Virus record (IMG/VR): IMGVR_UViG_2799112719_000001
Direction: 5' to 3' (one strand)
Source of the DNA: a virus
Length of the DNA: 64,000 nt
Shown here one piece after another: positions 3,601 through 63,970 of the stretch (position 1 is the stretch's first letter; each line of letters begins with the position of its first letter). A program made the translations under genes and the position numbers. The notes under the pieces were generated by a model. The model had not been told where the DNA came from. It saw only the letters and a list, made by a program, of their open reading frames with translations, and made no database searches.

Positions 3601-3601
3601 G

Positions 3602-3725
3602 GTTACGTCCTCATACCCCTTACTTAAAGGCTATGCAGGAAATCACCGATTTTGGAGAGTTACCGAATTTGACCCCTAAATTTACGACCCCGCACCCCTG
3701 AAGGTTACGGAAAATGACCCCTAAA
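3602..3725. repeat. Iteron cluster, orientation 1 (GTTACnnnnnnnnACCCCTAA), 3-4 copies
   Basis: Copies at 3602, 3659, 3681 (degenerate) and 3704, about 22 nt apart. Followed by an AT-rich stretch at 3727-3852. Confidence 0.8.
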
Positions 3726-3852
3726 TGAAGCATTTTCTTTATTTATTATATAGTATTGAGAATTTTCTTTTATGGATTTAGAAAAGATATATAATTATAA
3801 CGGTATGAAAATAGCCGGAAAAGCCTTTATACAAAGGGTTTCCGCTCTTTGC

Positions 3853-4036
3853 AGGGTGCAAATGTCCGTAACTTTCGGTGCAAATGTTCGTAACATAAGG
3901 GTAATTATCCGTAACCGTAGGGGATATTCTCTGGAACCCTTTTGTTTAGGGGTAAAACAGCGTAACCTATCGCTGAATATGGTGGAAGATTTAGGGGTAA
4001 AATCCCGTAACCTGTTTAGGGGTAAAACTTCGTAAC
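3853..4036. repeat. Iteron cluster, orientation 2 (TAGGGGTAAAAnnnCGTAAC), about 7 copies
   Basis: Copies start at 3853, 3875, 3897, 3918, 3947, 3992 and 4017. They are the reverse complement of the 3602-3725 set and lie directly upstream of the Rep-like gene. Confidence 0.8.
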
Positions 4037-4070
4037 TTTGAGTCGATACTAAGTTTCAACTTATAAAGAA

Positions 4071-5540
4071 ATGACTATGGCAAAGAAAAACAAAGACGAT
4101 AAGATGCAGGCACTCATCAAGAGCGACAATGCCATTATCCGTGAGCTGCGCGATCAGAAGTGGATTTATAATCCCAAGGTGTTCGCACAGGTGGCTGGTG
4201 ACTTCTCGCTGATGCACCAAAGGGTTCTGTTGGGTGTGCTCGAAAAGCTGCAAGACCGTATAGCCTATTCTGCTTCTGAGCATCAGAAGAATCAGCAGCT
4301 TTGGCTCCCGCTCTTCTCGCCGGACGAAATGAATACGTCGGTGGACTTCGAGATAGACCCAAGAGATATTGGTGTGACTCCTGGCCACTATCCTGAGTTG
4401 GCACAGGCTTTGTCAGATCTGATAGGTCTGAAGATGGGTTGGCCGAAGCGTAAGGGTAATAAGACGGTGTATCAGTTTGTGTCATTCTTCAGTCGCCTGG
4501 AAATGCCGATGACTGAAAGCGGATGGCGCACAGGAAAGATCCGCGTAAAGATGGATAAGGAGAATGTCAACGACTTCTTATCCATGGAGCGTGGCTATAC
4601 TGACCACATCGCTAAGATTGCTCAGTTCTCGAAGAAACAGCGTACTCCCAGACTGTATATCTACCTTTCGACGTTCAAATATAAGAAGCGTGACGAAGTA
4701 GAGTACCCAGAACTGTGCGAGTTCCTTGGCATTGATGATGAAAGTTATGTGGAGTCGCATAAGGCAGAGAATCCTAATGTGAAGCCTACGGATAATCCTT
4801 TTCATAAGTTCTCGAAGGTGAAGAAACTGATTCTGGACCCATCGAAGCAGGAAATGGATAAGTTCTCGGCTGAGAAGAAAATCGACTTCACGTTTACTTA
4901 CGAGCCGATGTATAAGGATGGCCGTAAGAAGGGTAATCCTACGCATATTGAGTTTGTCATCGTTCCAGGACCGCTGGGAATTGAGCGTGAACAGGACCGC
5001 AAACGTCATGGGCAGGTGCAGAGTGTCATCAGTTCGCTTACGAAATGGTGTCCTGACATCAAACCTTACGAGGTGGTGGAACTGGCCAAGGAGGTGCAGG
5101 ATGACTGGCTGGATGACTTCTGTAACTTTGCCTACGACGATGTGCGCCATCAGGTAGAGAAGACTCAGCCAGACCATGTGGCAGAATATGTCATTACGAT
5201 GCTCTCTAACTGGATTAAGGATCGTCAGATGGCCGCAGAGCGTAAGCGTATAGAGGACCAGAGACAGTATGAGCTATTTGAGCGTCAGGAGGCAGAAAGT
5301 AAGTGGCCTGCTTGCTTTGCTGAGATCTCGGCATCTATACCTGTCACTTCCAGTCAGCTTTATTTCTGTGACTATGGGAATGCAGAGATAAAAGGGGTGG
5401 TTAGAAAGACCATCACTTTGTGGATAGTGAATGAGGCATTTATATCGGTGATTGAAAGCAAAGAGAATCTGCCGGCCTATGAGGGTGCTATCCGTAAATA
5501 TTATGGTCAAATAGCCGTTCAATACAAATTGATAAGGTAA
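4071..5540 (+). CDS. Replication initiator, Rep_3/RepB-like
   Basis: N-terminal IKSDNAIIRE...FSLMHQRVLLGVLEKL resembles the Rep_3 signature (xSNxLIea..ltl.EqRlll). Flanked by iterons on both sides. Confidence 0.6.
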   Translation: MTMAKKNKDDKMQALIKSDNAIIRELRDQKWIYNPKVFAQVAGDFSLMHQRVLLGVLEKLQDRIAYSASEHQKNQQLWLPLFSPDEMNTSVDFEIDPRDIGVTPGHYPELAQALSDLIGLKMGWPKRKGNKTVYQFVSFFSRLEMPMTESGWRTGKIRVKMDKENVNDFLSMERGYTDHIAKIAQFSKKQRTPRLYIYLSTFKYKKRDEVEYPELCEFLGIDDESYVESHKAENPNVKPTDNPFHKFSKVKKLILDPSKQEMDKFSAEKKIDFTFTYEPMYKDGRKKGNPTHIEFVIVPGPLGIEREQDRKRHGQVQSVISSLTKWCPDIKPYEVVELAKEVQDDWLDDFCNFAYDDVRHQVEKTQPDHVAEYVITMLSNWIKDRQMAAERKRIEDQRQYELFERQEAESKWPACFAEISASIPVTSSQLYFCDYGNAEIKGVVRKTITLWIVNEAFISVIESKENLPAYEGAIRKYYGQIAVQYKLIR

Positions 5541-10634: not shown

Positions 10635-10858
10635 AATTTATTTTTTTTGTATTCAATACCGGCATTGATGCCAGTGGATAAGAGCCTTTTCACGAAGGCT
10701 TTGAACTCTGTTTCTTCCATGAGGCAAACAGTATGGAAACCTTTGTGTTGGTTTCCTCTCTTGGTGCCGATGGCCTCTATCATATTCCACTCGCTGTTTG
10801 TGACATGTTCAACGTCCTCTTCCAGTTCCTTTGGTATGATGATTTCTTCCTTTGCCAT
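10631..10858 (-). CDS. hypothetical protein
   Basis: 75-aa ORF with a 4-nt overlap to the next gene. Its start codon lies inside the 111-bp repeat. Confidence 0.5.
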   Translation of the reverse strand: MAKEEIIIPKELEEDVEHVTNSEWNMIEAIGTKRGNQHKGFHTVCLMEETEFKAFVKRLLSTGINAGIEYKKNKL

Positions 10859-10961
10859 ATCGTTTCACTTTATACTTGGTTTTACCTTTTAGATGTCGGT
10901 AGTACCTGTAATCAGCAGGTATTTCAAATTCCTTTGAGCGGAAGTAGTCTATTGCAATCAT
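10809..10961 (-). CDS. small basic ORF, copy 1 (50 aa)
   Basis: MIAIDYFRSKEFEIPADYRYYRHLKGKTKYKVKRYGK... has an ATGA overlap with the upstream stop. Its first 37 codons are duplicated at 12842-12952. Confidence 0.35.
   Translation of the reverse strand: MIAIDYFRSKEFEIPADYRYYRHLKGKTKYKVKRYGKGRNHHTKGTGRGR
10851..10961. repeat. 111-bp direct repeat, copy 1
   Basis: 103/111 identical to 12842-12952. Confidence 0.85.
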
Positions 10962-11452
10962 GGGCAAATCATTCTTTTTAGATGGTCTAATGCTGCATTG
11001 ATTTCGTGGATGTTGTCATTATTGCTTTCCCCATACATACGCAGCAGCTCTTTCACACGCTGTTTGAAGGCTCTGTTTGGATGGTGAATCACTTTCATTT
11101 CGCTTCCGTCGGTTCCTTTCTCTACGACGATGTGCAGGCCGGAAATGATCTCTGCCAGTTCCTCTTTCGACACTTCACGCACAAAGATGCCGGCAATCTC
11201 GGTATAGCGGTATGTGTTGCCGTTTTCAATGACTGTCACGTTCCACTCAGGGCAGCAGCCTGGCTTTGATGGTGGGTACTTGAAAATCTGTTTGATGGTA
11301 ACAACATTGCTGAAGATGTCAACAACCTTTTGGCCTACCTCAAAGAGAAACGGTTTTACGCTTGTAATGGCGTAGTCCTCTTCTTTATTCCATTTGTCCC
11401 TGGCAATTACTGCACTGCCATCTTCTCGGACGTTTATTGAGTATTCTAACAT
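10958..11452 (-). CDS. hypothetical protein
   Basis: 164-aa ORF. Confidence 0.6.
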   Translation of the reverse strand: MLEYSINVREDGSAVIARDKWNKEEDYAITSVKPFLFEVGQKVVDIFSNVVTIKQIFKYPPSKPGCCPEWNVTVIENGNTYRYTEIAGIFVREVSKEELAEIISGLHIVVEKGTDGSEMKVIHHPNRAFKQRVKELLRMYGESNNDNIHEINAALDHLKRMICP

Positions 11453-11463
11453 GAATTTATGAG

Positions 11464-11892
11464 TTAATGATTCTTTTTTACATCGCGGGTCTGATAACTA
11501 CGGATGCCTGTGTAGATGGTTCCGAGTTGGTCTTTCCCTATTTTATTGCGGAGATATTCTTTTGATAGTTGTACGATATAGCAGCCGCAATGGTTTTCGT
11601 TGGCTTTTATTTCTGTAATGCTGAATCCCCATCGACGCAATAAGCGTAAGGCGATATTGAGATTCTTCTGACTATTGAATCGTATTCCGCAAGTTGGATC
11701 AAGTACGATTTTTCCTGCATAGTCTGGATTGAGAATGATGTTTTGTATAAACACTATTCCATGTTTGGAAAAATCCTCTACGAGCATTTGCCTAAACTCA
11801 GAGACAGGAAACAGCTCTCTTTTTTGTTGCATCCTTGCCCTGAAGCATTCATCCATTAAATAGGTGTTCATAATTACTATTCTTTTAACCAT
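11464..11892 (-). CDS. hypothetical protein
   Basis: 142-aa ORF. An alternative start at 11871 would avoid overlapping the GNAT gene. Confidence 0.55.
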   Translation of the reverse strand: MVKRIVIMNTYLMDECFRARMQQKRELFPVSEFRQMLVEDFSKHGIVFIQNIILNPDYAGKIVLDPTCGIRFNSQKNLNIALRLLRRWGFSITEIKANENHCGCYIVQLSKEYLRNKIGKDQLGTIYTGIRSYQTRDVKKNH

Positions 11893-12233
11893 TTACACAT
11901 AGCTACACATTTGCCTTTGGTGTGTTCGCAGTTATCGTTGTAGATGTTGAAACCGAGTCTGCGATACCAGTCAATAAGGAATGTCCCTTTGCGGGCATCG
12001 AGATAGATGCTACCCAAGTCCAACTTGCGGGCAAAGGCTTCCACCTCTTTCATCAGAGCGGTACCAATGCCCTGTTGTCTGTCGGTCTCGAATACCATGA
12101 GCGAATTGATATATCCGGCGCGAGGGGTTTCGTCATCGAGTGACAACTTGACCATCGCCCTGCCGTCCGATGTGATGAAGGTATAGCTCTTTCCCCACCA
12201 CCAAAGATTTTCGTGTAGTATTATTTCCTTCAT
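11877..12233 (-). CDS. GNAT-family N-acetyltransferase
   Basis: RQQGIGTALMKEVEAFARKL matches the acetyl-CoA binding motif Q/RxxGxG/A. Confidence 0.7.
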   Translation of the reverse strand: MKEIILHENLWWWGKSYTFITSDGRAMVKLSLDDETPRAGYINSLMVFETDRQQGIGTALMKEVEAFARKLDLGSIYLDARKGTFLIDWYRRLGFNIYNDNCEHTKGKCVAMCKWLKE

Positions 12234-12640
12234 TCTTCTTCCTTATTTACTTTGGACCTAAAATCTAATGGGTTTAGTTTACGAGGTTTTTTTAGAGCCA
12301 GAATGAGATCATCGGCGTATGAGACTGCATCCTGTGCTATACACTGCCCCATGGTCTTGAATCCCTCTCGATATGCTCTTTGGTGCATTTGTTCCAGGAG
12401 TTGTGTATTGATGCAGCAGGCATTCAGGATGGCTTGCATGGCTTTTCCAGCAAATTGAGGGCGATACTGATCATAGTCTATATTGTCTATCAATTCCACT
12501 TCGTCAGGGGATAATGGCTCTCCCATGCCTTCCAGCAGCACACGTCCATCTTCCAGAATTTTCTTCACAGGCATGGTAATGCCGGAGCTGATGATGCGCC
12601 CCTTCAGTGGTTCGTCGTAAAAGTTTAACGTATTAGTCAT
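12230..12640 (-). CDS. hypothetical protein
   Basis: 136-aa ORF with 4-nt overlaps at both ends. Confidence 0.6.
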   Translation of the reverse strand: MTNTLNFYDEPLKGRIISSGITMPVKKILEDGRVLLEGMGEPLSPDEVELIDNIDYDQYRPQFAGKAMQAILNACCINTQLLEQMHQRAYREGFKTMGQCIAQDAVSYADDLILALKKPRKLNPLDFRSKVNKEEE

Positions 12641-12849
12641 AATCCTATAGTTATTTGTTCATGTTTCTTTTTCAGTTCATCTTCTTTTCTTAGTCTTCGA
12701 GGCAGGTCCACGTTGTAAATGGTGGTTGCAACTTCTGATAATGGCAGCATCAGGTTTCGGGCTGTTTGTTCAATATCTCTGCATCGACGATACTCTGAGC
12801 ATATCTTGCCTATCCATCTTTCAGCGGACGTTCTTTTTCGCTTTGCCAT
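12637..12849 (-). CDS. hypothetical protein
   Basis: 70-aa basic ORF. Its start codon lies inside copy 2 of the 111-bp repeat. Confidence 0.5.
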   Translation of the reverse strand: MAKRKRTSAERWIGKICSEYRRCRDIEQTARNLMLPLSEVATTIYNVDLPRRLRKEDELKKKHEQITIGL

Positions 12850-12952
12850 ATCGTTTTACTTTATACTTGGTTTTACCATTCAGATGTTTGTAGTACCTGT
12901 AATCAGCAGGCTTTTCAAATTCCTTTGAGCGGAAATAGTCTATTGCAATCAT
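12821..12952 (-). CDS. small basic ORF, copy 2 (43 aa)
   Basis: MIAIDYFRSKEFEKPADYRYYKHLNGKTKYKVKRYGKAKKNVR, with an ATGA overlap to the upstream stop. Confidence 0.35.
   Translation of the reverse strand: MIAIDYFRSKEFEKPADYRYYKHLNGKTKYKVKRYGKAKKNVR
12842..12952. repeat. 111-bp direct repeat, copy 2
   Basis: 103/111 identical to 10851-10961. Confidence 0.85.
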
Positions 12953-13362
12953 TCCTGTTCGTTTTCGCAGTTAATCTGTCTGATACGCTCTTCGCAGATA
13001 TGGATGATCTTCTCGTAGTCGAGCAGACGGCTTTCACCCTGTTTGGTACGGAGCACGCGCTTTACGATGTCTGCATCCCAGGGGTTCAGGTTCCAGTCAA
13101 TCCATATCGACCAGGGCTGAATGACATGCTGGCTGTAGTCGCTATTGCCACGATTGTAGGCCCGTACACTGGTATTCAGTATGCCGACACGCGCCAGTTT
13201 CTTATATTCCTCCCAACTGATAATCTTGTGTTCGGGATGACTATCGAGCAGTTCAGCAGCTATCTCCAGAGCAATCTTTATGTCCTGGTCGCTACATTTA
13301 CTCTTTCCGTCTTCATACAGGACAGATGTCCTGATAATCTGTGCAGCTTCTTTGTTTGTCAT
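12949..13362 (-). CDS. DUF3310-like protein
   Basis: VIQPWSIWIDWNLNPWDADIVKRVLRTK resembles the DUF3310 signature (IxP.d.i....l.f..gnviKYv.R). Confidence 0.5.
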   Translation of the reverse strand: MTNKEAAQIIRTSVLYEDGKSKCSDQDIKIALEIAAELLDSHPEHKIISWEEYKKLARVGILNTSVRAYNRGNSDYSQHVIQPWSIWIDWNLNPWDADIVKRVLRTKQGESRLLDYEKIIHICEERIRQINCENEQE

Positions 13363-13365
13363 AAT

Positions 13366-13704
13366 CTATTTTGCTTCAATGATGATACGTTTTACATTTC
13401 CTTTTTTGTCCTTTTCGCAATGATAGGTAAGTTCGCATTCTTCATACAGCCATCGGCGCATGTTCTCTTTACTCTCCAGCAGGAAACGAATCATGGCATA
13501 GCCTGCCAACTTGCGATATTGCGCTTCCAAGGGGAAATAGTCGTAGTGCTCCTGGCCGTCATCAAGTGCCGGATTCTTTGGCTTGCATCCACGTTTAACG
13601 GCAGGGGTAATGGAAAAAGCCCAATCGTGTTGCAGCTTTTCCAATACCTTCCTGGCACCGTTAATCTCGAATGATTCTATCAGTAGTTGGTTCATTCTTT
13701 CCAT
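13366..13704 (-). CDS. hypothetical protein
   Basis: 112-aa ORF. Confidence 0.6.
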   Translation of the reverse strand: MERMNQLLIESFEINGARKVLEKLQHDWAFSITPAVKRGCKPKNPALDDGQEHYDYFPLEAQYRKLAGYAMIRFLLESKENMRRWLYEECELTYHCEKDKKGNVKRIIIEAK

Positions 13705-33992: not shown

Positions 33993-36900
33993 ATGGCAGA
34001 TACAAAGAAATCCGAGGTAGTCATTACCTGTAACGCCCAACAGCCAAAGGCCGCTGTCCGTGCTATGGAAACGGAGCTGAAACGTCTTCAGGCTGCATAC
34101 AAGCAACTCTCCGACGCTGGTAAGGCCGGCACAGAGAGGGCAAAACAGATGGCTCACGAAATCAAGGAACTCTCCATCGCCGTGAAGGAGGGTAAGGCCA
34201 ACATGGATAAGATTGTTACCGTGACAAACAATCTTTCCAACTCTTCCCTGTCACAGCTGCAACGTGCTTTGCGCCAGGTGAAGAAAGAAATGGGCCGTGT
34301 CAGTACCGATTCGCCTAAACTCGATGACCTGCGCCAGAAATACAAGGCCATCACCGACCAAATCAAAATCCTTCAGGGTGAAATGGTCAACATCCAGAAG
34401 CACATGGGCAATTTCTCCCAGACTTCTGACGCATGGCTCTCTCGTGCCATCAATCAGCAGAAGCAACTCGTGGCTCAGACTGACAAAACGAATAGTGGCT
34501 ATCAGCGTCAGGTGGATATTCTGCATCAGCTTCAGGCCGAACAGCAGAATAGGGCAATGGCTACCGTATTGAATGGTGGTGCTACTGCTGATGATCTCCG
34601 TGCCGCTCGTGCCTCTATCACGTCTTACCGTGACCAGTTAGGTAAAGGTGGTATTATGCCTGTTGGTGGTGACGTGGCACGGGAAATTGAAGCCTGTAAT
34701 GTCGCTCTGAAGAAATGTGATGAGCAGTTGGATGTTATTGCCGGTAAGGAGAAACAGATTGAGCCGACCGTGCAGGAGATAGAGCAGGATATCACGAAAT
34801 TGGTTGGTAGTCTGGCTAACGCCTCTCCTGAACAGCTCCGTAAGGGTTTGGAGCAATGCCGTAACCAACTGGATAAGATGGCTGCAAACGACCCCAACCG
34901 TCAGAAGTGGGTTACTTGGGCAAAGCAGCTGAAAACGGCTCTCGAAGGTGTGGACCGTGAAGCCGTTGACATCGACAAAGTGATGCGTAACCTCAAAAAA
35001 GAGCCATTGGAGAATCTTCGTAAGGCTGCAAAGCAGTTGGAAGAGGAAATGGTGAAACTGAATCGTGAGGATGCAAAATATAAGGATCGCCAGAAACAAC
35101 TACAAAAGATTCGTGGTGAGATAGACAGTGTTACGCGCTCTATCAATAATCAGGCTTCTGCATGGAGTACGACGTTTAGAAATATCTCCATGTACTTTGG
35201 TGTGTTCCAGCTCTTCTCGATGGCACAGCAGAAGCTCCAAGAAATGCTCCGTAGTAACCTGGCTTACTCCGACCAGTTGGCAGACATCCGTAAGGTGACT
35301 GGACTGGCCACTAAGGATGTGAACGAATTGGCTGAAAGCATAGCAAAACTTGATACGCGCACAAGCATTCAGGAGTTGTCAGATTTGGCGTACCAAGGCG
35401 GTAAGATGGGATTTGGAAAATACGGTGTGGAAGGCATGGTCGAATTTGTCCGTGCTGCCGATCAAGTTAAGGTTGCTCTTTCCGATGACCTCGGCGAAGA
35501 CAGCCTCTTGCAGATTTCAAAGCTCATTGATACGATGGGCCTCATTCCGAAACTCGGTGTCGAAAAATCCATGCTGTCTGTAGGATCTGCCATTAACCAG
35601 CTTGCGGCCACTTCTACTGCCAGTGGTACGCATATCGTGGACTTCTCGAAACGCCTTACAGGTTTGTCGCGTATTACAGGAATTACTACGCCGGAGCTTT
35701 TGGCATTGGGAAGTGCAGCGGATGCTTTAGGGCAGGCTCCTGAAGTTGCAGCCACGGCCTTTGGTAAACTCTTCACGTCTTTGCAGACCAATCACAATCT
35801 GATTGAACAGCAGCTAAACATGGAGAAAGGTACTATCAATAACCTTTTCTCACAGGGTAAGGCTATGGAGGCCATTCTGCAAATCATGGAAAAGATGCGT
35901 GATAAGGGTAACATGAATGCGCTGGGTAACATCTGGAAAGATCTTGGTTCTGAGGGTCAACGCTTGATAGGTGTGATGGCCACCATGTCGAAGAATGTAG
36001 ATACTGTACGCGCACATGTAGAGGAAGCTAACGAGGCTTTTGAAGAGGCAACATCGCTGACCACGGAGTATGCCATGAAGCAGGAAACGGCTAATGCCAT
36101 TCTTGAACGTGCCAACCAACTTTGGGTAAGAACATTCGTGAACCCAGAGGGTGTTGACACCGTGAAGGAGCTGTCGCAGGCTTGGTATGACATGAGCCAA
36201 AAGCTGACCTCTTCGGCTCTCTACATGGGTCAAATAAGACTCGTGCTGACAATGATTATTGCTGCCGTGAAGCTGCTGGTGGTTCTGTTGCCTACGCTTA
36301 TCCAGTTCCTGTTGTTCAAGGGTGCTTATATGGGCGTGATGGCTCTCTATCGTGGCTTCGTGGCAATGAAGACTGCCATTATCGGTGCTATGGTGGCACA
36401 GCAGGGCCTTAACACGGCTATGAAGGCTAACATCTTCGGACTGATAATCTCCCTGATAGCTTCTGCCGTCGTTTGGCTAACAAACTATGGCAATGCTGCC
36501 GATGATGCTGCCAACAAGCAGAAGACGATGAACGAGTACATCAAGGAGGCTGCTGCTGAGATCGACAAAGAGACTCGTAAACTGGAATCCTATAAGCGTG
36601 TCCTGGAAGACGCGAACACGTCACAGGCACAGCGTGAGCGCATCCTGAGACAGTTTAACCGTACTTACGGCACCTATCTGAATAAACTCGGCATCGAGGT
36701 TAATTCGGTGGATGACCTGCGTAAGCATTACGCGCTCTTGAATGATGAACTGCGCAAAAAAATATATTACCAGACGAAGCAACGCGCTTACGATCAGGAG
36801 TTGGGCGATAAGGCTGGAGAGTTGGGCAAAAAGGCTCGTGCTTTCTCTGACCTGACGGTAAATAATTCGCGTGATGGCTCTTTTGCTGCCTACGATACCA

Positions 36901-39632
36901 AATGGCTTGAAGATCAGATAAACCAGAATCAGAACACTTATGGTAGTGTAAACTGGGTTTCCATCTATTCTGACATGGTGCAGAGCCGTTTCGGTAGGCG
37001 TACTGATGGTAGAAGTGGCTTTAATAACGACTATTCGGTATTTACCGATATGGCTGGTACTGAGCATAATGTAGCAGCTTATGGCAAGGCTATTCGTGAA
37101 TATGTGGATGCCTGGCAGGAGTATAACAAGACGAAAAAGAGTATTGATGCAGCTCTTGACCCGCTCATCGGCGACTACGATCCGTTTGCTGAGACTCCAG
37201 GCGAACTGACGAATGATGCTGTTGACAAAGAAGCTGAGAAGCGTCGCCGTGCAGAGGAAGCAGCCCGTCGCAAGGCTCTTCGTGCTGAAATGCGCGAGGA
37301 ACAGGATAAGGCCAAGGCTATCATCGACAATGTAAAGAACTACTACGAGCGTCAGATTGCTGCCATTACGGAAATGGCTACCCGTACCGGCATGGATTCA
37401 GAGCTTCAGAAGAAACTCGTGGATGGTATGACGGTACGCATGAATAGCGCATTGGCCAATGTTCGCCAGGCTATTGCCGGCACAGAAAACGAATGGGCTG
37501 ATTTCCGTCAGTCGATGATGGATGATCTCTACGAGCCGCTTTCTGCCGATGGCACCAACCAGTCAACGAAGTTGCTCGACAATATCATTCACAATGACAT
37601 CGACCAGCTGAAAAAGATGATTGAAACGCTCTCTAAGGAGCTGGGGCAGAATGGTTCCGTATTGCTCGATCAGATATGGCGTAAGGCTACTGAGAATGAG
37701 TTGGCCAATGCAAAACAGGCAAATACGGCATACCAGGCCCGCCAAAAGGTGTTGTTGGAAAAGAACTATACCGGCAAAGTAAACCGTGACTATGAGGGTC
37801 AGATGGAGCAGTTGGGCGTGGCCGAGCTGACTTCCAACCAGTCGAAACAACTGATGCAATGGTCTCAGGAAGGTAAGTCTGAGGACATTCAAAACTTCGT
37901 TAATAGTCGCTCTCAGTTGTGGCAACAGGCATTCTTGAAAGCTCGTGAGCATATTGTGGATGTCTTTGCTGCTGATGTCTCTACTGAAGATGGCCAGAAG
38001 GCTATGCTTACGTTGCTCTTTGGCGAGGACTACAATGGTACGTTATCCGGCTCTGCCTTGGAGTCTATGCTGAATATGGACTTGCAGCAGTGGCAGGTGT
38101 TCTATCAGAAGCTCATCGAAATGTCCGACGCTTACACCGATGCCCAGAAGAAAGCCTATGACGAAGCAAAGCGCCGTGCTGACTTCGTGTTTAACAACCG
38201 TCCTGACATCCAGGGCATCGACAAAGCCACACAGGATCTTTCGACTATCAATAGCGACCAGCAGCGTTTCGGCTCTGATAAGAACTTCACACAGCAGCTT
38301 GGAATGTCCTGGGATATGGATTCTGACCCAGAGATACTGCGCTATCGCCTGCTGTCGGAAAAGGCCCGTCTCTACTATCAGGAAATGAAGTCGCTCCGTG
38401 AGCAGGATAAGATCAGCGAACAGCAGTTGACCGATGCTAAACGTCAGATGATGGAGGCACAGACGGCCATGGCCGATAAGGTGGCCGCTAAGTTCAATGA
38501 GCGTGTTCAACTGTTGCAGTCATTCAGCGAACCGATGGCGACCTTTGCCGAAGGGGTAGGGGAGTACCTGGAAAGCCTCTCTGATGATGCGGAGGATTCT
38601 AACGAGAAGATGAAGAACATGGCTAAGACCATGCTCAAAGCCTACGCCAAGATGACGCTTCAGCTGATGGCCGAAGACCTGACTCGCCGCGTCACCAAGC
38701 AGCTATACCATCGTCAGGAGGAAGCCGACGAAACGCTGCATCAGCAGACATTGCTCCAGATACAACAGATGTACCAGGCACTCATGCTGACAGCACAGCA
38801 GACGGGCGACGCTGCACGTCTCACACAGCATTCGACATCTAACGCTGCCGAACTGTCTGAGGAAGCAACGGCCACAACGGGTAAGGTGGGACTTGGTATT
38901 GCCGGTGGTGCTGCTAAGATCATTGGCACCTTGGGCTTCTGGGGTATTCCGCTCATCGCTGTTATCACAGCCTTGCTGATGGGCTTGCTCTCATGGGCTA
39001 TCTCTGCTGCCTTTGGCGGTAGTGACAGTGGCGGTGCTGATTCTGGTCCTAACGTAAAGCTGGCCACGGGTATGCTGACATACGACGGTGGTAACGTGCA
39101 GTCTGTTGGTGGCGGTTCCACTCCATCCGGCGACACTACAAGCCCTGTCCTCGGTACAGATGGCAAGGTGTATAACGCTAAACAGGTAGGTAAACTTCAG
39201 ACGGGCATTGTTACACAGCCTATCGCTACCATGGTCAACGGCCAGCCGTCTCTCGTGGGCGAGAAAGGCCCTGAAATGGTAATTGGTAGGGAAACAACAG
39301 CAGCTATGCAAATGGCGCGTCCTGACCTTATCAATGAGATTGTGAAGTTCGATAAAAACTTCTCAGGGCGTGGATTCCGCACTTATGACGATGGCAACCT
39401 GTCCGACTTCACGGTGCCCGATGCGTCAGCAGCGGGTGAAAACATGCTCACCTCTGATGACATCCAGGGATTCCGTGATACGATGGCAGAGTTTACGGCC
39501 ATGATGTTGTTACTCCAGAAGAATGGCCTGCACGTCAACAAATTCGGACGTGGAAGCGTCACTCAGGAGTCTGCCGACGGTGCCGCATTCATGCGTCGTA
39601 ACTCCGGCGATCGTCTGTGGCGTAAGGGCTAA
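33993..39632 (+). CDS. Tail tape measure protein
   Basis: 1879 aa. Extended coiled coils, a central hydrophobic block (LVLTMIIAAVKLLVVLLPTLIQFLLF...) and a second TM cluster near residue 1640. Confidence 0.85.
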   Translation: MADTKKSEVVITCNAQQPKAAVRAMETELKRLQAAYKQLSDAGKAGTERAKQMAHEIKELSIAVKEGKANMDKIVTVTNNLSNSSLSQLQRALRQVKKEMGRVSTDSPKLDDLRQKYKAITDQIKILQGEMVNIQKHMGNFSQTSDAWLSRAINQQKQLVAQTDKTNSGYQRQVDILHQLQAEQQNRAMATVLNGGATADDLRAARASITSYRDQLGKGGIMPVGGDVAREIEACNVALKKCDEQLDVIAGKEKQIEPTVQEIEQDITKLVGSLANASPEQLRKGLEQCRNQLDKMAANDPNRQKWVTWAKQLKTALEGVDREAVDIDKVMRNLKKEPLENLRKAAKQLEEEMVKLNREDAKYKDRQKQLQKIRGEIDSVTRSINNQASAWSTTFRNISMYFGVFQLFSMAQQKLQEMLRSNLAYSDQLADIRKVTGLATKDVNELAESIAKLDTRTSIQELSDLAYQGGKMGFGKYGVEGMVEFVRAADQVKVALSDDLGEDSLLQISKLIDTMGLIPKLGVEKSMLSVGSAINQLAATSTASGTHIVDFSKRLTGLSRITGITTPELLALGSAADALGQAPEVAATAFGKLFTSLQTNHNLIEQQLNMEKGTINNLFSQGKAMEAILQIMEKMRDKGNMNALGNIWKDLGSEGQRLIGVMATMSKNVDTVRAHVEEANEAFEEATSLTTEYAMKQETANAILERANQLWVRTFVNPEGVDTVKELSQAWYDMSQKLTSSALYMGQIRLVLTMIIAAVKLLVVLLPTLIQFLLFKGAYMGVMALYRGFVAMKTAIIGAMVAQQGLNTAMKANIFGLIISLIASAVVWLTNYGNAADDAANKQKTMNEYIKEAAAEIDKETRKLESYKRVLEDANTSQAQRERILRQFNRTYGTYLNKLGIEVNSVDDLRKHYALLNDELRKKIYYQTKQRAYDQELGDKAGELGKKARAFSDLTVNNSRDGSFAAYDTKWLEDQINQNQNTYGSVNWVSIYSDMVQSRFGRRTDGRSGFNNDYSVFTDMAGTEHNVAAYGKAIREYVDAWQEYNKTKKSIDAALDPLIGDYDPFAETPGELTNDAVDKEAEKRRRAEEAARRKALRAEMREEQDKAKAIIDNVKNYYERQIAAITEMATRTGMDSELQKKLVDGMTVRMNSALANVRQAIAGTENEWADFRQSMMDDLYEPLSADGTNQSTKLLDNIIHNDIDQLKKMIETLSKELGQNGSVLLDQIWRKATENELANAKQANTAYQARQKVLLEKNYTGKVNRDYEGQMEQLGVAELTSNQSKQLMQWSQEGKSEDIQNFVNSRSQLWQQAFLKAREHIVDVFAADVSTEDGQKAMLTLLFGEDYNGTLSGSALESMLNMDLQQWQVFYQKLIEMSDAYTDAQKKAYDEAKRRADFVFNNRPDIQGIDKATQDLSTINSDQQRFGSDKNFTQQLGMSWDMDSDPEILRYRLLSEKARLYYQEMKSLREQDKISEQQLTDAKRQMMEAQTAMADKVAAKFNERVQLLQSFSEPMATFAEGVGEYLESLSDDAEDSNEKMKNMAKTMLKAYAKMTLQLMAEDLTRRVTKQLYHRQEEADETLHQQTLLQIQQMYQALMLTAQQTGDAARLTQHSTSNAAELSEEATATTGKVGLGIAGGAAKIIGTLGFWGIPLIAVITALLMGLLSWAISAAFGGSDSGGADSGPNVKLATGMLTYDGGNVQSVGGGSTPSGDTTSPVLGTDGKVYNAKQVGKLQTGIVTQPIATMVNGQPSLVGEKGPEMVIGRETTAAMQMARPDLINEIVKFDKNFSGRGFRTYDDGNLSDFTVPDASAAGENMLTSDDIQGFRDTMAEFTAMMLLLQKNGLHVNKFGRGSVTQESADGAAFMRRNSGDRLWRKG

Positions 39633-48344: not shown

Positions 48345-48529
48345 CAAAATATAGTAGCAAAGATATTCTTCGGCTTCATAAGAAGTCTGTTGACAAAGCC
48401 ATCCGTGATATCTATAACATACGGCCTACTGGTGATCCTAACAAGGATTTCGACGGCTTTCATACTATCATTGAAAAAGATATAGCAGAAAATGAAAATC
48501 TCTATCCTGCATCTGGTCCTGAAGTGTAA
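48341..48529 (+). CDS. hypothetical protein
   Basis: 62-aa ORF with a 4-nt overlap. Confidence 0.45.
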   Translation: MTKYSSKDILRLHKKSVDKAIRDIYNIRPTGDPNKDFDGFHTIIEKDIAENENLYPASGPEV

Positions 48530-48788
48530 GTGGTACGACATGATAGCTGCTGGCATCAAGACAGAAGAGTATCGTGCCATGACTCCATATTGGAAGAAAC
48601 GCCTCGCAAAACATTATACGCACGTTTGTTTCCATCGGGCCTATACATCTACGACTATATATGTAGAACTGAATGGTATCACTGAGGGTTATGGTAAACC
48701 TGAATGGGGTGCAAAGAATGAGGTTACACACATTTTGCACCTCGGTAAGCAGGAATCTTGTATCTGGAAATATATCAATCATCAATAA
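48492..48788 (+). CDS. ASCH-domain-like protein
   Basis: LVLKCKWYDMIAAGIKTEEYR resembles the ASCH N-terminal strand-helix motif. Confidence 0.45.
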   Translation: MKISILHLVLKCKWYDMIAAGIKTEEYRAMTPYWKKRLAKHYTHVCFHRAYTSTTIYVELNGITEGYGKPEWGAKNEVTHILHLGKQESCIWKYINHQ

Positions 48789-48801: not shown

Positions 48802-49701
48802 ATGGCAAAATTTCAAGATGTAATCGAATGTCTGAAAAAGGGTGGTTCTGCCCGTCGTATTTCGTGGACTGATAACTGCGAAATCATCCGTCAAATTCCG
48901 CAGTGTATCTCAAAGGACATCGTGCCTAAGATGACCTCATTGCCTGCAAGTATCAAACCAAAAATCAGCACTGTTGGCTCTGGTGAAATCTCATACCATG
49001 ACCAGGTAATCGTCATTACATTTGTCGATGATGAAAAGACTCCTGCCAGTGCCACATACTTCATCCCCACATGGGAAGATATCTTTGCTGAAGACTGGTC
49101 CTGTCTGACACCTGCCGATGAGCCTGAAACGGAAGAAAAAACCCCTGTGCTTGAAGCGTCAGCTTCGAGTGAAGACCAGCAGCCGGTCATCGACACCTCT
49201 ATTCCCGTCACTATGCGCATCAAGACTTACGAGGATGCCTTTAATGAGGTAAACATCCGTGCCATGCAGGGTGATAAGGTGGCCGAAAAACTCATTAAGG
49301 ATTTGCAGTTCAATTCGCCTTACACAGACGATCTGCTGGCATACATCAAGCTCCGCATTATCACCTATGCCATCAATGAGGGCTGGGAACCTCAGTTCGT
49401 TGTTGATGAGTATCGCTACTGGCCTTGGTTCTGGCTCTATACACAGCAGGAGATAGACGCTATGAACGAAGCGGAGCGTTCTAAGCTGCTGCTCGTCGGG
49501 GGTGCCGCGGATAGCGGTGCGCTTTGCGGTCTCGCTTTTGCGATCTCGAATCGCGCTTTCTCGGGCTCGCACACGTTCATCGGTGCTCGCCTGGCCTTCA
49601 AGTCTCGTGAACTTGCAGAGTATGCTGGTCGCCAGTTTATTGAGCTTTGGGCGGCTTTCTCATTCAAACCTGTTGTGAATGGCCATGGCAAAGGAAAATA
49701 A
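48802..49701 (+). CDS. DUF2829/Tad2-like N-domain fused to a C-terminal lectin-like domain carrying a DGR-type variable cassette
   Basis: Start at MAKFQDVIECLKKGGSARRISW...ISYHDQVIVI...IPTWEDIFAEDW (DUF2829 pattern). The C-terminus LLLVGGAADSGALCGLAFAISNRAFSGSHTFIGARLAF is paralogous to 63801-63916. Confidence 0.6.
   Translation: MAKFQDVIECLKKGGSARRISWTDNCEIIRQIPQCISKDIVPKMTSLPASIKPKISTVGSGEISYHDQVIVITFVDDEKTPASATYFIPTWEDIFAEDWSCLTPADEPETEEKTPVLEASASSEDQQPVIDTSIPVTMRIKTYEDAFNEVNIRAMQGDKVAEKLIKDLQFNSPYTDDLLAYIKLRIITYAINEGWEPQFVVDEYRYWPWFWLYTQQEIDAMNEAERSKLLLVGGAADSGALCGLAFAISNRAFSGSHTFIGARLAFKSRELAEYAGRQFIELWAAFSFKPVVNGHGKGK
49484..49599 (+). repeat. 116-nt variable-region-like cassette, copy 1
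   Basis: 100/116 identical to 63801-63916, with no similarity in the flanks. Rich in GCG/TCG/CTC codons. Confidence 0.8.
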
Positions 49702-49945
49702 ACCGTCGCTTGATCCCAAGGGGATGTTGCTCTTGCAAATCACTCAGCTGTTTCAGAAAAACAATATCGACCCGAATTTATCGGTGGAGGTGATGGCTGA
49801 AATGCTGATGCAGTTGTTTGTCGGAATGCAGGTGCTCACAACGGAAGACATTAACCCGCAGGTCCAGGCTTTCTTTGACAGAATGAAAGCAAAGGCCGCT
49901 GAAGTGTTACCTAAAATAGTTGCTGAGAGAAACAAAGCATCGTAA
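49679..49945 (+). CDS. hypothetical protein
   Basis: 88-aa ORF. Confidence 0.5.
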   Translation: MAMAKENKPSLDPKGMLLLQITQLFQKNNIDPNLSVEVMAEMLMQLFVGMQVLTTEDINPQVQAFFDRMKAKAAEVLPKIVAERNKAS

Positions 49946-50808: not shown

Positions 50809-51546
50809 ATGGCTAACATCTATTTACGCACGTCACGTTATGTCGCCGCATTTATGCGGGCTACTGGTGATGGAAACTCGTTACCAATGACAACACCCAT
50901 TGAGTTTTCACCATATACTCCTGAGTATGTGGTGTTGACCAATGGGCTGCGTATCATACCTGAGAAACAACAGCATCGTGCATCGTGCTACTCACAGTCA
51001 GCATGGCAGAACATGCTCCGTGGCCGTCTGCCGAATGGTGGTAAACCGATCATTGTCCGTGACCCATCGGAGTATCTGACCTATGCCGAGGTGTGTACGC
51101 TGGAGGCTTTGACCAACAAAACGAAGACAGATGCCTACGAGTTCCTATGTATTGCTACTCCGCGAGAGATCTGCATCGACGGCCATGTGCAGCGCGTCTA
51201 TAAGTCGCATACGCTCGATACCAGGGCCGCACAGCAGCTTCGGGAACTGTTGCGAAATACATTCATTCGTACTTTCCTCGATTTCTCTACCCGCAACAAA
51301 GTGTTTGCACAGTCTAACGGTATTCACCGTTCAAACATTGAGGTGCTGGAGCGTTTTCTCATGGCATACGATATTCCCGTGTCGCATGATAAGAATGAGC
51401 GTAGTACCCTGCGCCGACTCATACAACGATGGAAAAAGGAGGCTGAATATATGGCAAAGTCACCGGCCATTATCAATGATGAGCTGGTGACGCGCATCGA
51501 CAAACACGAAATATACGGTGGACTACCCAAATATGATGATGATTAA
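50809..51546 (+). CDS. hypothetical protein
   Basis: 245-aa ORF. Confidence 0.6.
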   Translation: MANIYLRTSRYVAAFMRATGDGNSLPMTTPIEFSPYTPEYVVLTNGLRIIPEKQQHRASCYSQSAWQNMLRGRLPNGGKPIIVRDPSEYLTYAEVCTLEALTNKTKTDAYEFLCIATPREICIDGHVQRVYKSHTLDTRAAQQLRELLRNTFIRTFLDFSTRNKVFAQSNGIHRSNIEVLERFLMAYDIPVSHDKNERSTLRRLIQRWKKEAEYMAKSPAIINDELVTRIDKHEIYGGLPKYDDD

Positions 51547-58555: not shown

Positions 58556-60547
58556 ATGGCAGAGAGAAGAGACGTTTACATGAACCACAAGCAGTACCTG
58601 ATGTACCTGATGAATGTACGAGACGGTCGCTTGCTTGGTAGCCGACGATTTGGTAAGACTGACGGCTCTATCGGGCCTCGCATCTATCGTGTCAGTCAGT
58701 CTATGCCTCGTGCTACGAATATATGGTTGGGAAACTCCAGAAAACAGCTCTATACCCGTACCGTTCCTGGCACCATTGCCGCCATTGAGCGTTTCTTTGG
58801 CATCCGTGAGTCAGTACATTTCGGCTGGGGTAAACCGCCACGATGGGTGCCGAGTCCTATCATCAAACCGAAGACCTGGGATAACTGCATCTGGTTTGCT
58901 AATGGCACCATTTGGCAACTCATTTCAATGGCAGTCACGGGATCGGCCAATTCGCTGACGGTAAACTCCATCGTGGCCGATGAGTGCAAGTTTATGTCGA
59001 AGTCCAAACTGGATGGTGAAGTCATGCCGGCATTGTCAGGTATCGTGCATCCGTTGGGCGACCCGTCTTTCTCTGATGCAAACCCACTTTTCAAATCCAC
59101 TTTCTTTGCCTCTGATGCGAGTCTGACATCAAAGAATAACTGGCTGGAGAATGAGGAAAGCAAACTCGACATGCACCCTGATACGGGGCCATTGACTAAC
59201 AAGACCTATCGGGAGATACAGGCTGAGTTGGAAGACTATGCAGAGCGTGTCATCTTCTACAATGAACTGCTGCGTAATGCCAAGCGTGACGGCTGTGTGC
59301 CTATCCTTTGCCGTCAGGATGAGATAGATGCCATCCGTATCAAGGCACAGGCCATGATGAACCACGAAGGCCCGTTCAAGATCCTGCCGAACTATGGCCA
59401 ACGTATCAATAAGGCCATGCTCGATATGGCTATCAACTATAAACTGATTGATGCAGAGGAAGCGGAATTACTCTATTGCCATAAGTATCTGATTACACCT
59501 GACCAGGACTTTGACATGCAGATGATTCTTAACTCGAAGTCCTACCAGAAGAAAATCCGTACCTTACAGTGTAACGCCTTTGCATTTTGGCGTGTCAGCA
59601 CCTTAGACAATGTAGATATCGTCGGAGAGTCGTACATAGCGAGAATGGCGCGTGACCTTCCTCCTGTCGTGTTTGCCATATCTATTCTTAATAAAAAGGT
59701 GGCAAAGACTAACGACGGTTTCTATTCCAATCTCGATATTGAGAATGTGCATGGCTATATTCCTGATGACTGTCCGGCCATTGACAGCAGCTTCACGAAA
59801 AAGAAAGCTATGACTGTGCTCGGTGGCTCTGCTACTGAAGAAGAGTACGAGACTCCCGACTTTGGCGAGTTACAGCAGATCAAAGACTGCACTCTGGATG
59901 GTGACGTAGTGGACGCGCTGCCTTTGTATATCAGCATGGACTATAACGCTAACATTAACTGGGTGGTGACTGGGCAACTCTATCGCAGGGATAACCAGGA
60001 ATGTCTCAATGTGCTCTCCAGTATGTATGTCAAGAATGAGCGTAAGCTGCGTGAGCTGATGGGCGACTGGCATCACTACTATAAGCCTAAGATGCAGAAA
60101 TGCCGTGAGGTCATCTATTTCTATGATGCAACAGCCAAGTTCAAAGGCTATGCCATCGAGGGTATGGAAGACTTCAAGGATGTGGTCATTAACGAGCTGA
60201 CGAAATACGGTTGGTCTGTACGGCCTGTTGACATGGGATCACCGATGGCCCACGAAATGAAGTATAAGGATATCAACGAGTCGCTGGCTGGTGTGGCCTA
60301 CCCTGCTATCCGCATCAATCGTGAGAATAACGAGGCTCTGATTATTGCCATGCAGAATGCGGAGGTGTCTATCGGCTATAAAGGGTTTAGGAAGAATAAA
60401 GCAGGTGAAAAGCTCTCTGAAGACGCAGACGATGCAGTACGCCTGGAGTACAGAACGGACGGCACCGATGCGTTTGACTCGCTCTATATTGGCTGCCGCT
60501 ATCATCTTACAAACATGTCGGGCATGTGCCTTCCATTAGGTGATTAG
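58556..60547 (+). CDS. terL: Terminase large subunit
   Basis: Walker A-like GSRRFGKT, Walker B-like SIVADE, 663 aa. Confidence 0.65.
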   Translation: MAERRDVYMNHKQYLMYLMNVRDGRLLGSRRFGKTDGSIGPRIYRVSQSMPRATNIWLGNSRKQLYTRTVPGTIAAIERFFGIRESVHFGWGKPPRWVPSPIIKPKTWDNCIWFANGTIWQLISMAVTGSANSLTVNSIVADECKFMSKSKLDGEVMPALSGIVHPLGDPSFSDANPLFKSTFFASDASLTSKNNWLENEESKLDMHPDTGPLTNKTYREIQAELEDYAERVIFYNELLRNAKRDGCVPILCRQDEIDAIRIKAQAMMNHEGPFKILPNYGQRINKAMLDMAINYKLIDAEEAELLYCHKYLITPDQDFDMQMILNSKSYQKKIRTLQCNAFAFWRVSTLDNVDIVGESYIARMARDLPPVVFAISILNKKVAKTNDGFYSNLDIENVHGYIPDDCPAIDSSFTKKKAMTVLGGSATEEEYETPDFGELQQIKDCTLDGDVVDALPLYISMDYNANINWVVTGQLYRRDNQECLNVLSSMYVKNERKLRELMGDWHHYYKPKMQKCREVIYFYDATAKFKGYAIEGMEDFKDVVINELTKYGWSVRPVDMGSPMAHEMKYKDINESLAGVAYPAIRINRENNEALIIAMQNAEVSIGYKGFRKNKAGEKLSEDADDAVRLEYRTDGTDAFDSLYIGCRYHLTNMSGMCLPLGD

Positions 60548-62722: not shown

Positions 62723-63970
62723 ATGAAAAAAGCAAAAACTTCTCTTGCGTCTGGTGAAAACATAGCCAAGGTGTTGTGTATGACCAGTCAGGACAATCTC
62801 TACGAGGCTACGCCCGAAGAGGTGAACAACAGTGCCATTCCATCTACTGTTGTTGGTGCGCTTGCTTCCAGCTTCACACTGGAGCAAAACTCTAATCCGG
62901 CCTTTGTGGTCAATAATCGTGGTGCTGCTGAACTCTATCAGTCTCAGATGGGTGGCTATGCCTTCTTTATCAAAGATGGTAAGGTGTATGCTGCAAAGCT
63001 GAATGGTGCTGATTGGACGAAGTTTGCCGATGGCACGGCGTTTACTACTGCACTTGAACAGGTGTGCGAGACGATGGTACATGTACCTGATTGCCACTTC
63101 AAGGGTGAGGGTAAGACGCTGCATTTCGGTGGTACTGTGCCTATCGACGGTGGCAAGGTCTTCGATTCACCTCATTGGGTAGGTGCCTACAAGATCAGCT
63201 ACGATGCCAACAACAAGGCACACAGCCGTCCTGACAAGGCTCCGAAGCACTCACAGACAATGAGCCAGTTCTGGGCTGCCGCTCAGTTGCTCGGTTCTGA
63301 GTGGGGATTGGCTAACTACGGCTTCCATTGCCTGATTAACGCGCTGTTCCAGGCCCGCTATGGCAACCTAAACTCACAGAGCGTCATCGGTGCCGGCTTC
63401 CAGACATCTTCATGGGAGGCTGCGCGTGACGTACCTATGGGCTTGCTGAAGCATTTGGGCGACGGTAGCGGTAATGTGTACTACACTGATACCACTATTG
63501 GCGACCAGTACCCCGTGAAGCTCTTTGGCTTCGAGGATCTTTGGGGAAAGCTCTGGGAGTTCCGTCCTGGCATCCGCTTCTACATGGATGATGATGTCCG
63601 TAAGGCTGTGGTCTATTCTGGCAACCAGGTGAGCAATACGGCTACTGGCCGTGAGTTCGTTTGTTCCGTACAGTCTGCATCAGGTGCTTATGTCAAGAGC
63701 ATGGAGTGCGGAGAGTTCTGGGATATGATTGCTCAGAATGTCACGGGTGGCGGTAGCACTACATACTATTGTGATGGGTACTATGCCGCTACGACTGGTC
63801 AGCTGCTGGTCGTCGGGGGTGGCGCGAATAGCGGTGCGCTATGCGGTCTCGTTTATGCGCGCTCGAATTACGCTTTCTCGAGCTCGATCACGAGCATCGG
63901 CGCTCGCCTGGCCTTCTACGGGGAGCCGGAAATCGTGAGCGGAGCACAGTTGGTGGCCCTGACCGCGTAA
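62723..63970 (+). CDS. Receptor-binding/fibre-like protein with C-terminal DGR-type variable cassette
   Basis: The C-terminus QLLVVGGGANSGALCGLVYARSNYAFSSSITSIGARLAF fits the lectin-fold variable-region pattern and lies 18 codons before the stop. Confidence 0.6.
   Translation: MKKAKTSLASGENIAKVLCMTSQDNLYEATPEEVNNSAIPSTVVGALASSFTLEQNSNPAFVVNNRGAAELYQSQMGGYAFFIKDGKVYAAKLNGADWTKFADGTAFTTALEQVCETMVHVPDCHFKGEGKTLHFGGTVPIDGGKVFDSPHWVGAYKISYDANNKAHSRPDKAPKHSQTMSQFWAAAQLLGSEWGLANYGFHCLINALFQARYGNLNSQSVIGAGFQTSSWEAARDVPMGLLKHLGDGSGNVYYTDTTIGDQYPVKLFGFEDLWGKLWEFRPGIRFYMDDDVRKAVVYSGNQVSNTATGREFVCSVQSASGAYVKSMECGEFWDMIAQNVTGGGSTTYYCDGYYAATTGQLLVVGGGANSGALCGLVYARSNYAFSSSITSIGARLAFYGEPEIVSGAQLVALTA
63801..63916 (+). 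repeat. 116-nt variable-region-like cassette, copy 2
   Basis: 100/116 identical to 49484-49599. Confidence 0.8.

Follow-up and report, generated by a model that had tools for sequence, protein, structure and literature searches.

A Tad2-like domain fused to a hypervariable target of a diversity-generating retroelement in a lineage of ~105-kb phages, a candidate counter-defence protein

In the diversity-generating retroelement (DGR) of Bordetella phage BPP-1, one reverse transcriptase (RT) serves the target protein Mtd, a trimeric tail-fibre tip protein encoded beside the DGR cassette, with a variable region (VR) near the 3′ end of the gene, a template repeat (TR) rich in Asn codons and adenine-specific mutagenesis. 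Multimer avidity is a known feature of this target. A different arrangement was described for Quimbyvirus, in which one VR lies in a fibre-adjacent gene and a second in a distal, opposite-strand and presumably non-structural gene (Benler 2021, PMC8008677); in that publication the remote target is a hypervariable gene surrounded by genes of defence and counter-defence, and HHpred was reported to detect C-type-lectin domains in it (PMC8008677). Four prophage species with a second, distal VR near counter-defence genes have since been described by Dahlman 2025, where the Benler paper and the LoVEphage paper are the references given for the Quimbyvirus/LoVEphage phage (PMC12629997). Non-structural DGR targets of abundant gut phages have been known since 2021, without a recognisable domain beyond the variable head and with a role argued from gene neighbourhood alone. 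The UHGV atlas reports frequent shuffling of DGR-targeted lectin domains and does not mention a Tad2 fusion, and a 2026 survey of 2,930 phage DGR targets found none in known anti-defence proteins. Here we describe a gene in a 64,000-nt stretch of viral DNA (IMG/VR record IMGVR_UViG_2799112719_000001, hereafter the window) whose 299-aa product joins a Tad2-like domain, formerly DUF2829, to a module diversified by a DGR.

The Tad2 family provides the second point of comparison. HgmTad2, from Bacteroides phages, is a tetramer that acts as a sponge for glyco-cyclic ADP-ribose (gcADPR) and the cyclic dinucleotide cGG; its gcADPR site comprises W21, N22, G23, T82, W87, L88, S90, T92 and D93, its cGG site, located in the insertion, comprises R31, S47, F70 and N85, and it does not inhibit Cas9 (PMC10680739). 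The family as a whole covers several signals, among them cyclic UMP (cUMP) and N7-cyclic ADP-ribose (N7-cADPR) (PMC12393519). The known sponges, including SPO1 Tad2, HgmTad2 and SptTad2, are stand-alone proteins of ~90–105 aa, and the Tad2 literature we found describes no fusion to a DGR target. Tad2 proteins act as tetrameric sponges; the domain described here, known from sequence and predicted structure, differs from the characterised members at several ligand-contact residues.

We regard the anatomy of this protein as practically certain: it is a soluble, non-structural protein composed of a Tad2/DUF2829 domain, a flexible acidic linker and a ~165-aa module of the PHROG 11581 family, in which codons 228–264 form one of the two VRs of a single DGR whose TR and RT lie ~14.8 kb downstream. 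Unlike Mtd, this target is distal to its cassette, soluble and fused to a domain of an anti-defence family. Taken as a whole, the combination of this anatomy, the DGR wiring and a presumed role in intracellular conflict is the best explanation of the locus, and one that we consider somewhat more probable than its competitors together.

The gene model is consistent across sources. The start Met is common to homologues (beginning MAKF or MNFP), the 299-aa protein is also predicted by the gene caller on a 104-kb public contig (ena:ERZ27279871:k141_584085, L003), and an in-frame ATG at 48673, which overlaps the preceding gene, is unused by gene callers and homologues alike. Within the window, the segment 49485–49593 of this gene has exactly one related copy, at 63802–63910, in a gene for a 415-aa tail-fibre-like protein. 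We considered this second copy as the template and rejected it: of the 16 differences between the copies, 7 fall at adenines of either one and 14 at codon positions 1 and 2. Because of this pattern, both copies are variable regions (VR1 and VR2) and not a VR/TR pair, and neither a TR nor an RT is present inside the window. These were read from the public contig, which is identical to the window over the stretches compared: it matches the last 100 nt of the window exactly, carries identical 415-aa and 299-aa genes and extends past the window end. The TR occupies contig positions 11592–11700 (window-equivalent 64314–64422), 343 nt after the fibre-like gene and ~300 nt past the window end, and a gene for a 448-aa RT follows 275 nt beyond it (11975..13321, window-equivalent 64697–66043). 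The RT carries a YCDD motif and gives weak RVT_1 and group-II RT matches, the former under the Pfam cutoff; it has a C-terminal extension of ~130 aa. The 726-nt spacer between the fibre-like gene and the RT (contig 11249..11975, window-equivalent 63971..64697) contains only the TR and structured GC-rich sequence, with no Avd-like open reading frame (ORF).

Between VR1 and the TR there are 17 differences, and 17 of 17 coincide with one of the 25 TR adenines, with none elsewhere; the variable-region-like cassette that an initial sequence-only reading of the window had pointed out is thus a true variable region of a DGR. In VR2, 12 adenines are changed, together with two further sites, 63852 and 63901 (C>T and T>C), a class of difference absent from VR1. 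Read in the frame of the target, the TR encodes LLNVGGNANNGAQCGLAYANSNNAFSNSNTNIGARL, and its 14 randomisable codons comprise ten AAC/AAT codons together with CAA, TAT, ACG and ATC, from which ~1.8e14 protein variants can be calculated using the genetic code. In both VRs the repeat is followed by GCCTTC, while AAATTA occupies the same place in the TR; this VR-specific flank resembles the initiation of mutagenic homing (IMH) element of characterised DGRs, making it a candidate for that role by analogy. A downstream hairpin is not significant after VR1 (z 0.20) and moderate after VR2 (z −1.93). Homology between the two targets extends over no more than ~71 aa around the VR (51% identical). In this wiring, the RT copies the template RNA with adenine-specific errors, and the resulting cDNA overwrites VR1 and, independently, VR2 of the tail-fibre gene.

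Comparison across genomes demonstrates that this diversification takes place in nature. Using six genomes (the window and five IMG/VR genomes; L008, which carries a 3-nt insertion, was left out), we found that all TR-adenine sites (25 of 25) vary; the corresponding counts are 5 of 84 for the remaining positions of VR1 and 49 of 791 for the gene outside it (Fisher p 8e-29). Invariance of the cassette would have spoken against the sequence-only reading; the opposite is observed, and VR1 is actively diversified in natural populations at the TR-adenine positions. At the protein level, 12 full-length members of the same 90% cluster are essentially identical outside residues 231, 235, 237, 238, 241, 246, 248, 250, 251, 255 and 257–260. 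At the four codons containing adenine in part, every residue observed is reachable by changes at A alone: L, Q and R at residue 241 (of five possible), F, S, C and Y at 246, T, A and S at 258 (of four), and I, L, F and V at 260. The 299-aa protein in its exact form is found on 4 contigs, the fibre-like protein on 3, while neighbouring proteins recur unchanged on 58–424 contigs. In addition, two IMG/VR contigs break inside VR1, L014 ending at residue 239 and L024 starting at residue 256, which is consistent with the assembly breaks expected from VR heterogeneity within a sample. Outside VR1 the picture is reversed: 36 of the 49 variable sites are third codon positions, and among divergent fused forms the N-terminal domain is 78% identical against 65% for the C-terminal scaffold. 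These substitution patterns show that the rest of the gene, the Tad2-like domain included, is under purifying selection.

The N-terminal domain matches Pfam PF11195 (Tad2-like) over residues 3–100 with 29.6 bits in the whole protein and 32.6 bits in isolation, against a gathering cutoff of 25. When the full-length AlphaFold model was compared with 350,542 PDB chains using Foldseek, the best three matches were all SPO1 Tad2 (8smf_B, 8smf_G and 8wje_A), with a probability of 1.0 and template-modelling (TM) scores on the target of 0.54–0.64; SPO1 Tad2 is therefore the closest fold among PDB chains. The mean predicted local distance difference test (pLDDT) score of this model is 66, and the insertion (residues 33–67) is poorly modelled. 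At the profile level, the domain retrieves SptTad2 (8wjd; E 4e-4) and aligns end to end with HgmTad2/'AcrIIA7' (8kbi), including the long β2–β5 insertion, so that it shares both the length and the insertion of HgmTad2 and SptTad2. The agreement of Pfam, PDB-profile and fold comparisons, with individual E-values that are moderate, confirms at the level of prediction the DUF2829/Tad2 domain proposed from the sequence. Of the HgmTad2 pocket residues, W21, T82, D93 and S47 are retained, conservative substitutions occur at W87 (to F/Y), L88 (to I) and S90 (to T), and the state of F70 depends on the aligner, with conservation under hhalign but not under HMMER. The pocket is only partly kept, and ligand specificity is therefore not readable from the sequence.

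The nearest relatives of this domain are found in abundant stand-alone gut-phage proteins of ~173 aa (e.g. P0066 and P0094), whose N-terminal domains are 70–76% identical to it and share its insertion. These proteins end in a 60-aa helical domain, PF21825 ('crAss001_48'), whereas the protein described here has the acidic linker and the DGR-diversified module in its place. Across fused and unfused forms 44 positions are invariant, covering almost the entire β2–β5 insertion. This conservation would fit a domain swap that is recent and left the function of the Tad2-like module intact. No other Tad2-like gene is present in the 64-kb window. The linker joining the two domains (residues 104–135; pI 4.05, with 9 D+E against 1 K+R, and 5 Pro) bears out the acidic character noted in the sequence-only reading. 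It is predicted to be disordered, with pLDDT <50 at residues 105–125 of the full-length model, and its length differs between homologues, being shorter in the 272-aa forms.

The C-terminal module belongs to a family recorded as being of 'unknown function', with residues 133–290 aligning to positions 40–194 of the 200-position phrog_11581 profile (E 7.2e-46). Its best tblastn relatives, at 45–47% identity, come from LoVEphage and the cultured temperate phages BI-TP1 and PV4-TP1, in which the homologue is a stand-alone 194-aa 'hypothetical protein' encoded among genes for methyltransferases, a radical-SAM enzyme, a phosphoadenosine phosphosulfate (PAPS) reductase, an ASCH protein and RtcB. The LoVEphage protein matches PHROG 11581 over its full length (E 4e-47) and is itself a DGR target, its 3′ region matching the VR in a tail-collar-fibre gene and the TR beside the RT. 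This protein is the Quimbyvirus/LoVEphage remote target (ORF80/84 in Benler 2021; QVQ57199.1, MW660583), and the correspondence with our locus is extensive: homology spans the whole C-terminal module, the gene carries the second and distal VR, the first target of the DGR being a tail-fibre gene beside the RT, and accessory and counter-defence genes surround it, with one neighbour that is ASCH-like. The differences lie in the N-terminus and the replicon. The LoVEphage protein has a ~40-aa N-terminal leader and no Tad2-like domain, in contrast to the 299-aa fusion, and its backbone is a temperate 71-kb phage, whereas ours is an unrelated phage of ~104 kb. The sequence-only reading knew of no description of a protein of this kind; this stands for the Tad2-like fusion, but not for the C-terminal module, which represents the published Quimbyvirus/LoVEphage target family (PMC8008677, PMC12629997). 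A literature search found no publication combining DGRs with DUF2829 or describing a Tad2-like fusion. What appears to be new is accordingly the fusion to a Tad2-like domain, and what was already known is the remote, non-structural phage DGR target.

An exhaustive profile search recovered 230 clusters of PHROG 11581 at 50% identity (E<=1e-30), mostly single-domain proteins of 180–200 aa, with a minority having longer N-termini. Among 35 long representatives, one has a Tad2-like match and the remainder no Pfam domain; the member with the match is not named in the search output and is taken to be that of the present lineage. The Tad2-fused forms found (P0001–P0026; 58–94% identical) all come from related ~100–106 kb phages, confining the fusion to one ~105-kb phage lineage. 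We considered decay of the Tad2 domain in 247-aa 'N-truncated' homologues and rejected it, since the 28 codons upstream are intact and in frame, reflecting a miscalled start codon. L017, a related phage of 106 kb, has a C-only form of 168 aa at the corresponding syntenic position, and a separate 149-aa AcrIIA7/HgmTad2-like protein with an N-terminal extension is encoded 2.5 kb downstream of it (12997..13446).

In an AlphaFold model of the C-terminal module alone (pLDDT 74; predicted TM score 0.73), the N-terminal part is confidently modelled as three helices, and two more helices at the C-terminus follow the VR, unlike the arrangement in Mtd; the VR itself has pLDDT <50 in both models. Foldseek matches of the full-length model to C-type lectins (mincle and EMS16) are non-significant (E 5–9). 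With the module alone, Foldseek found no significant match in the PDB, returning a single non-lectin chain (4k1o; E 9.3), and in BFVD it found only uncharacterised gut-phage proteins, some from crAss-like viruses. When the PDB was searched by sequence, neither the C-terminal profile nor the fibre protein gave a meaningful match. Of the two halves that the sequence-only reading had put forward for structural comparison, the N-terminal one modelled as Tad2 and the C-terminal one yielded non-significant matches; the 'lectin-like' label was not confirmed by these comparisons and derives from the template shared with the fibre-like target and from the HHpred result reported by Benler et al.

In the gene order, the fusion gene comes after the tape-measure gene (33993..39632) and before the head protease (52257..), within a block containing primase, ThyX, Dam, YopX and DUF4406 genes and apart from the fibre genes at 60.6–64 kb. 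Its placement outside the tail module, as first read from the sequence, is thereby upheld, as is the DUF4406-like neighbour, which has a Pfam match. The ASCH-like neighbour, a 98-aa protein, is a partial case: it is 39% identical (E 4e-21) to an ASCH-annotated protein of phage BI-TP1 and belongs to phrog_625, with no match in Pfam. A phrog_625 ASCH-like gene adjoins the PHROG 11581 target in three backbones (the window, at 48492..48788; LoVEphage/BI-TP1, L001 6691..7107; and L017 9155..9559), and the two genes may constitute a conserved functional pairing. The ASCH-like protein and the 299-aa target also fall in one 90%-identity cluster of 413 members, and some assemblies may carry a read-through or fused call of the two genes; we discounted the size of this cluster as a measure of hypervariability, as the 98-aa sequences are lumped into it. 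A gene for an N6/N4 DNA methyltransferase comes after the fused target in L027, a relative of 105.7 kb. The coordinates of the features are collected in Table 1.

Table 1. Features of the fusion gene, its retroelement and its neighbour, in window coordinates
Feature	Coordinates	Strand	Basis
Target 1 (remote DGR target), gene for the 299-aa fusion protein	48802..49701	+	ORF list, gene caller, homologue starts
Tad2/DUF2829-like N-terminal domain, residues 1–103, long-insertion type as in HgmTad2/SptTad2	48802..49110	+	Pfam, Foldseek, profile
Acidic proline-rich linker, residues 104–135	49111..49206	+	Composition, pLDDT
C-terminal module, residues ~133–290, PHROG 11581 member	49198..49671	+	Profile match, E 7e-46
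VR1, DGR variable region, codons 228–264, 14 randomisable codons	49485..49593	+	TR comparison, cross-genome variation
VR1 3′ end and 6-nt flank GCCTTC, candidate IMH-type target-recognition element	49580..49599	+	TR/VR1/VR2 three-way alignment
Second DGR target, 415-aa tail-fibre-like protein directly upstream of TR and RT	62723..63970	+	phrog_5302 tail protein, E 1.8e-40
VR2, variable region of the fibre-like gene	63802..63910	+	TR comparison
ASCH-like neighbour gene, 98 aa	48492..48788	+	phrog_625

What the protein does can be approached from its composition and context. It has neither a predicted signal peptide nor a predicted transmembrane segment, which makes an intracellular role plausible. 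In our view the protein is most likely a cytoplasmic counter-defence factor. The 299-aa protein would act in the cytoplasm during infection, the hypervariable module would bind a variable host factor or a factor of a competing element, and the Tad2-like part would sequester a nucleotide immune signal, or provide a Tad2-type tetramer through which four variable heads gain avidity, or both. This proposal, of a protein acting inside the infected cell in phage–host conflict with a variable module for a variable partner and a Tad2-like part that sequesters a signal and/or tetramerises, we advance tentatively, at slightly under an even chance. The conflict-related context supports it: the accessory block (Dam, ThyX, DUF4406 and the ASCH-like gene), the methyltransferase of L027, the nearby Tad2 of L017, and the methyltransferases and RtcB of LoVEphage. 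The diversified recognition of an intracellular host target, proposed in the sequence-only reading, is likewise something we infer.

Several observations weigh against this proposal. The Foldseek E-values to SPO1 Tad2 are just 2e-3 to 5e-3, with a root-mean-square deviation of 5.6–7.4 Å, and the hhalign probability against HgmTad2 is just 56% (E 1e-4). The HgmTad2 pocket is partly kept, with N22 changed to T, T92 to E, R31 to Q and N85 to T/S. A C-type-lectin fold for the C-terminal module was not confirmed by the two AlphaFold models, Foldseek or the PDB profile search. Most PHROG 11581 members (~190 aa) are without the Tad2 domain, which argues that the conserved function resides in the variable module, and other long forms bear unrelated, unannotated N-termini (~130 aa in the P0031/P0054 type and ~215 aa in L022); searches of Pfam and PHROGs with the P0054-type and L022-type N-terminal domains gave no matches. 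Finally, only 2.5 kb separate the gene from the head protease downstream, and a late or virion-associated role is possible.

The family structure just described bears most directly on an alternative in which the Tad2-like domain is a mere scaffold for oligomerisation or solubility that has lost its sponge activity, the activity of the protein being that of the PHROG 11581 module, with other N-termini doing the same job elsewhere. The predominance of single-domain members, the several unrelated N-termini attached to the same module, the substitution of the key ligand residues N22, T92 and R31 and the precedent of multimer avidity in Mtd would all suit such a scaffold. It has to contend with an N-terminal domain that remains 70–76% identical to stand-alone Tad2-like proteins and with the 44 invariant positions, which include the whole β2–β5 insertion that houses the cyclic-dinucleotide pocket in HgmTad2, a degree of conservation exceeding what oligomerisation alone would need. 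We consider the scaffold explanation unlikely, while ranking it ahead of the other alternatives.

The position of the gene bears on a second alternative, in which the protein is associated with the virion, or released at lysis, and acts outside the cell as a decoration, an adhesin or a soluble anti-receptor that binds surface glycans through a fibre-type variable head. Canonical phage DGR targets are receptor-binding proteins, the template repeat is common to the fibre-like target, with 51% identity over the ~71 aa around the VR, and the head module lies 2.5 kb downstream on the same strand. The predicted lack of a signal peptide and a transmembrane segment counts against this, as do the lack of structural-protein family matches outside the VR in Pfam and PHROG and the position of the LoVEphage/Quimbyvirus homologue, which lies away from the structural module and on the other strand and was judged non-structural (PMC8008677). 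We found no PHROG, Pfam entry or publication tying Tad2-family domains to virions, and the text of the crAss001 atlas, which lists five cargo and RNA polymerase-associated proteins as detected by virion mass spectrometry, does not name the related crAss001 gp48 among them. A virion-associated or extracellular role seems improbable. Least convincing of all is a superinfection-exclusion or inter-phage weapon whose variable head is directed at proteins of incoming rival phages or of mobile elements and not at host defence proteins: hypervariability would suit fast-evolving rivals, and the island to which Benler et al. assign the homologue is termed 'defence- and counterdefence-related' without a choice between the two (PMC8008677), but the fused partner comes from an anti-defence (pro-phage) and not a defence family, no effector domain is present, and the window contains ParA and a ligase with no lysogeny module and no integrase identified among the ORFs scanned, leaving this explanation a very slim chance.

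If the protein is indeed a cytoplasmic counter-defence factor, a broader proposition can be formulated, in which phages use a DGR to hyper-evolve an intracellular counter-defence protein besides their receptor-binding fibres. The fusion would then be a tetrameric sponge for a nucleotide signal with four programmable binding heads, re-targetable against variable host immune proteins on the time scale of infection cycles, and the whole PHROG 11581 family (at least 230 clusters) would consist of diversifiable anti-defence binders. We offer this as a speculative extension, possible and somewhat less probable than the proposal for the single protein.

The wider genome offers some further observations. 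By megablast the locus gave no matches to known phages, NCBIfam holds no family for the target or most of its neighbours, and the relatives identified are Bacteroidota phages. Near-identical copies of the proteins encoded at 49679..49945, 50809..51546 and 58556..60547 are labelled 'MAG: Elusimicrobiaceae bacterium' in NCBI nr, from one MAG (e.g. MCR5504264 and MCR5505087); this label is either a hint of the host or a binning artefact, all other affinities being with Bacteroidota phages. The second of these proteins (245 aa) is exceptionally invariant, occurring with identical sequence on 424 contigs, and has no match in Pfam, PHROG or NCBIfam. The window starts with a NAD-dependent DNA ligase (49..1362; 437 aa, adenylation and OB domains only) and a ParA-like ATPase (2393..3256), and tRNA genes are absent from it; plasmid-like maintenance of the phage is a possibility. 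In L027 (features at 3450..4951 and 10800..11513, counting the methyltransferase after the fused target), genes for an acyl-carrier protein (PP-binding) and a ketoacyl synthase come right after the tape-measure gene, an unusual feature for a phage.

The significance of the fusion lies primarily in the link that it creates. As a 'Rosetta-stone' connection between the PHROG 11581 family and an experimentally characterised anti-defence family, it gives the first recognisable functional clue to these proteins and an experimental handle through which the role of non-structural DGR targets becomes testable. Should the Tad2-like domain prove to be a functional anti-defence module, the fusion would be a counter-example to the 2026 survey. 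If the proposed role is confirmed, targeted hypermutation would serve immune evasion inside the cell besides host recognition at the surface, and the protein would represent a natural scaffold for evolvable intracellular binders.

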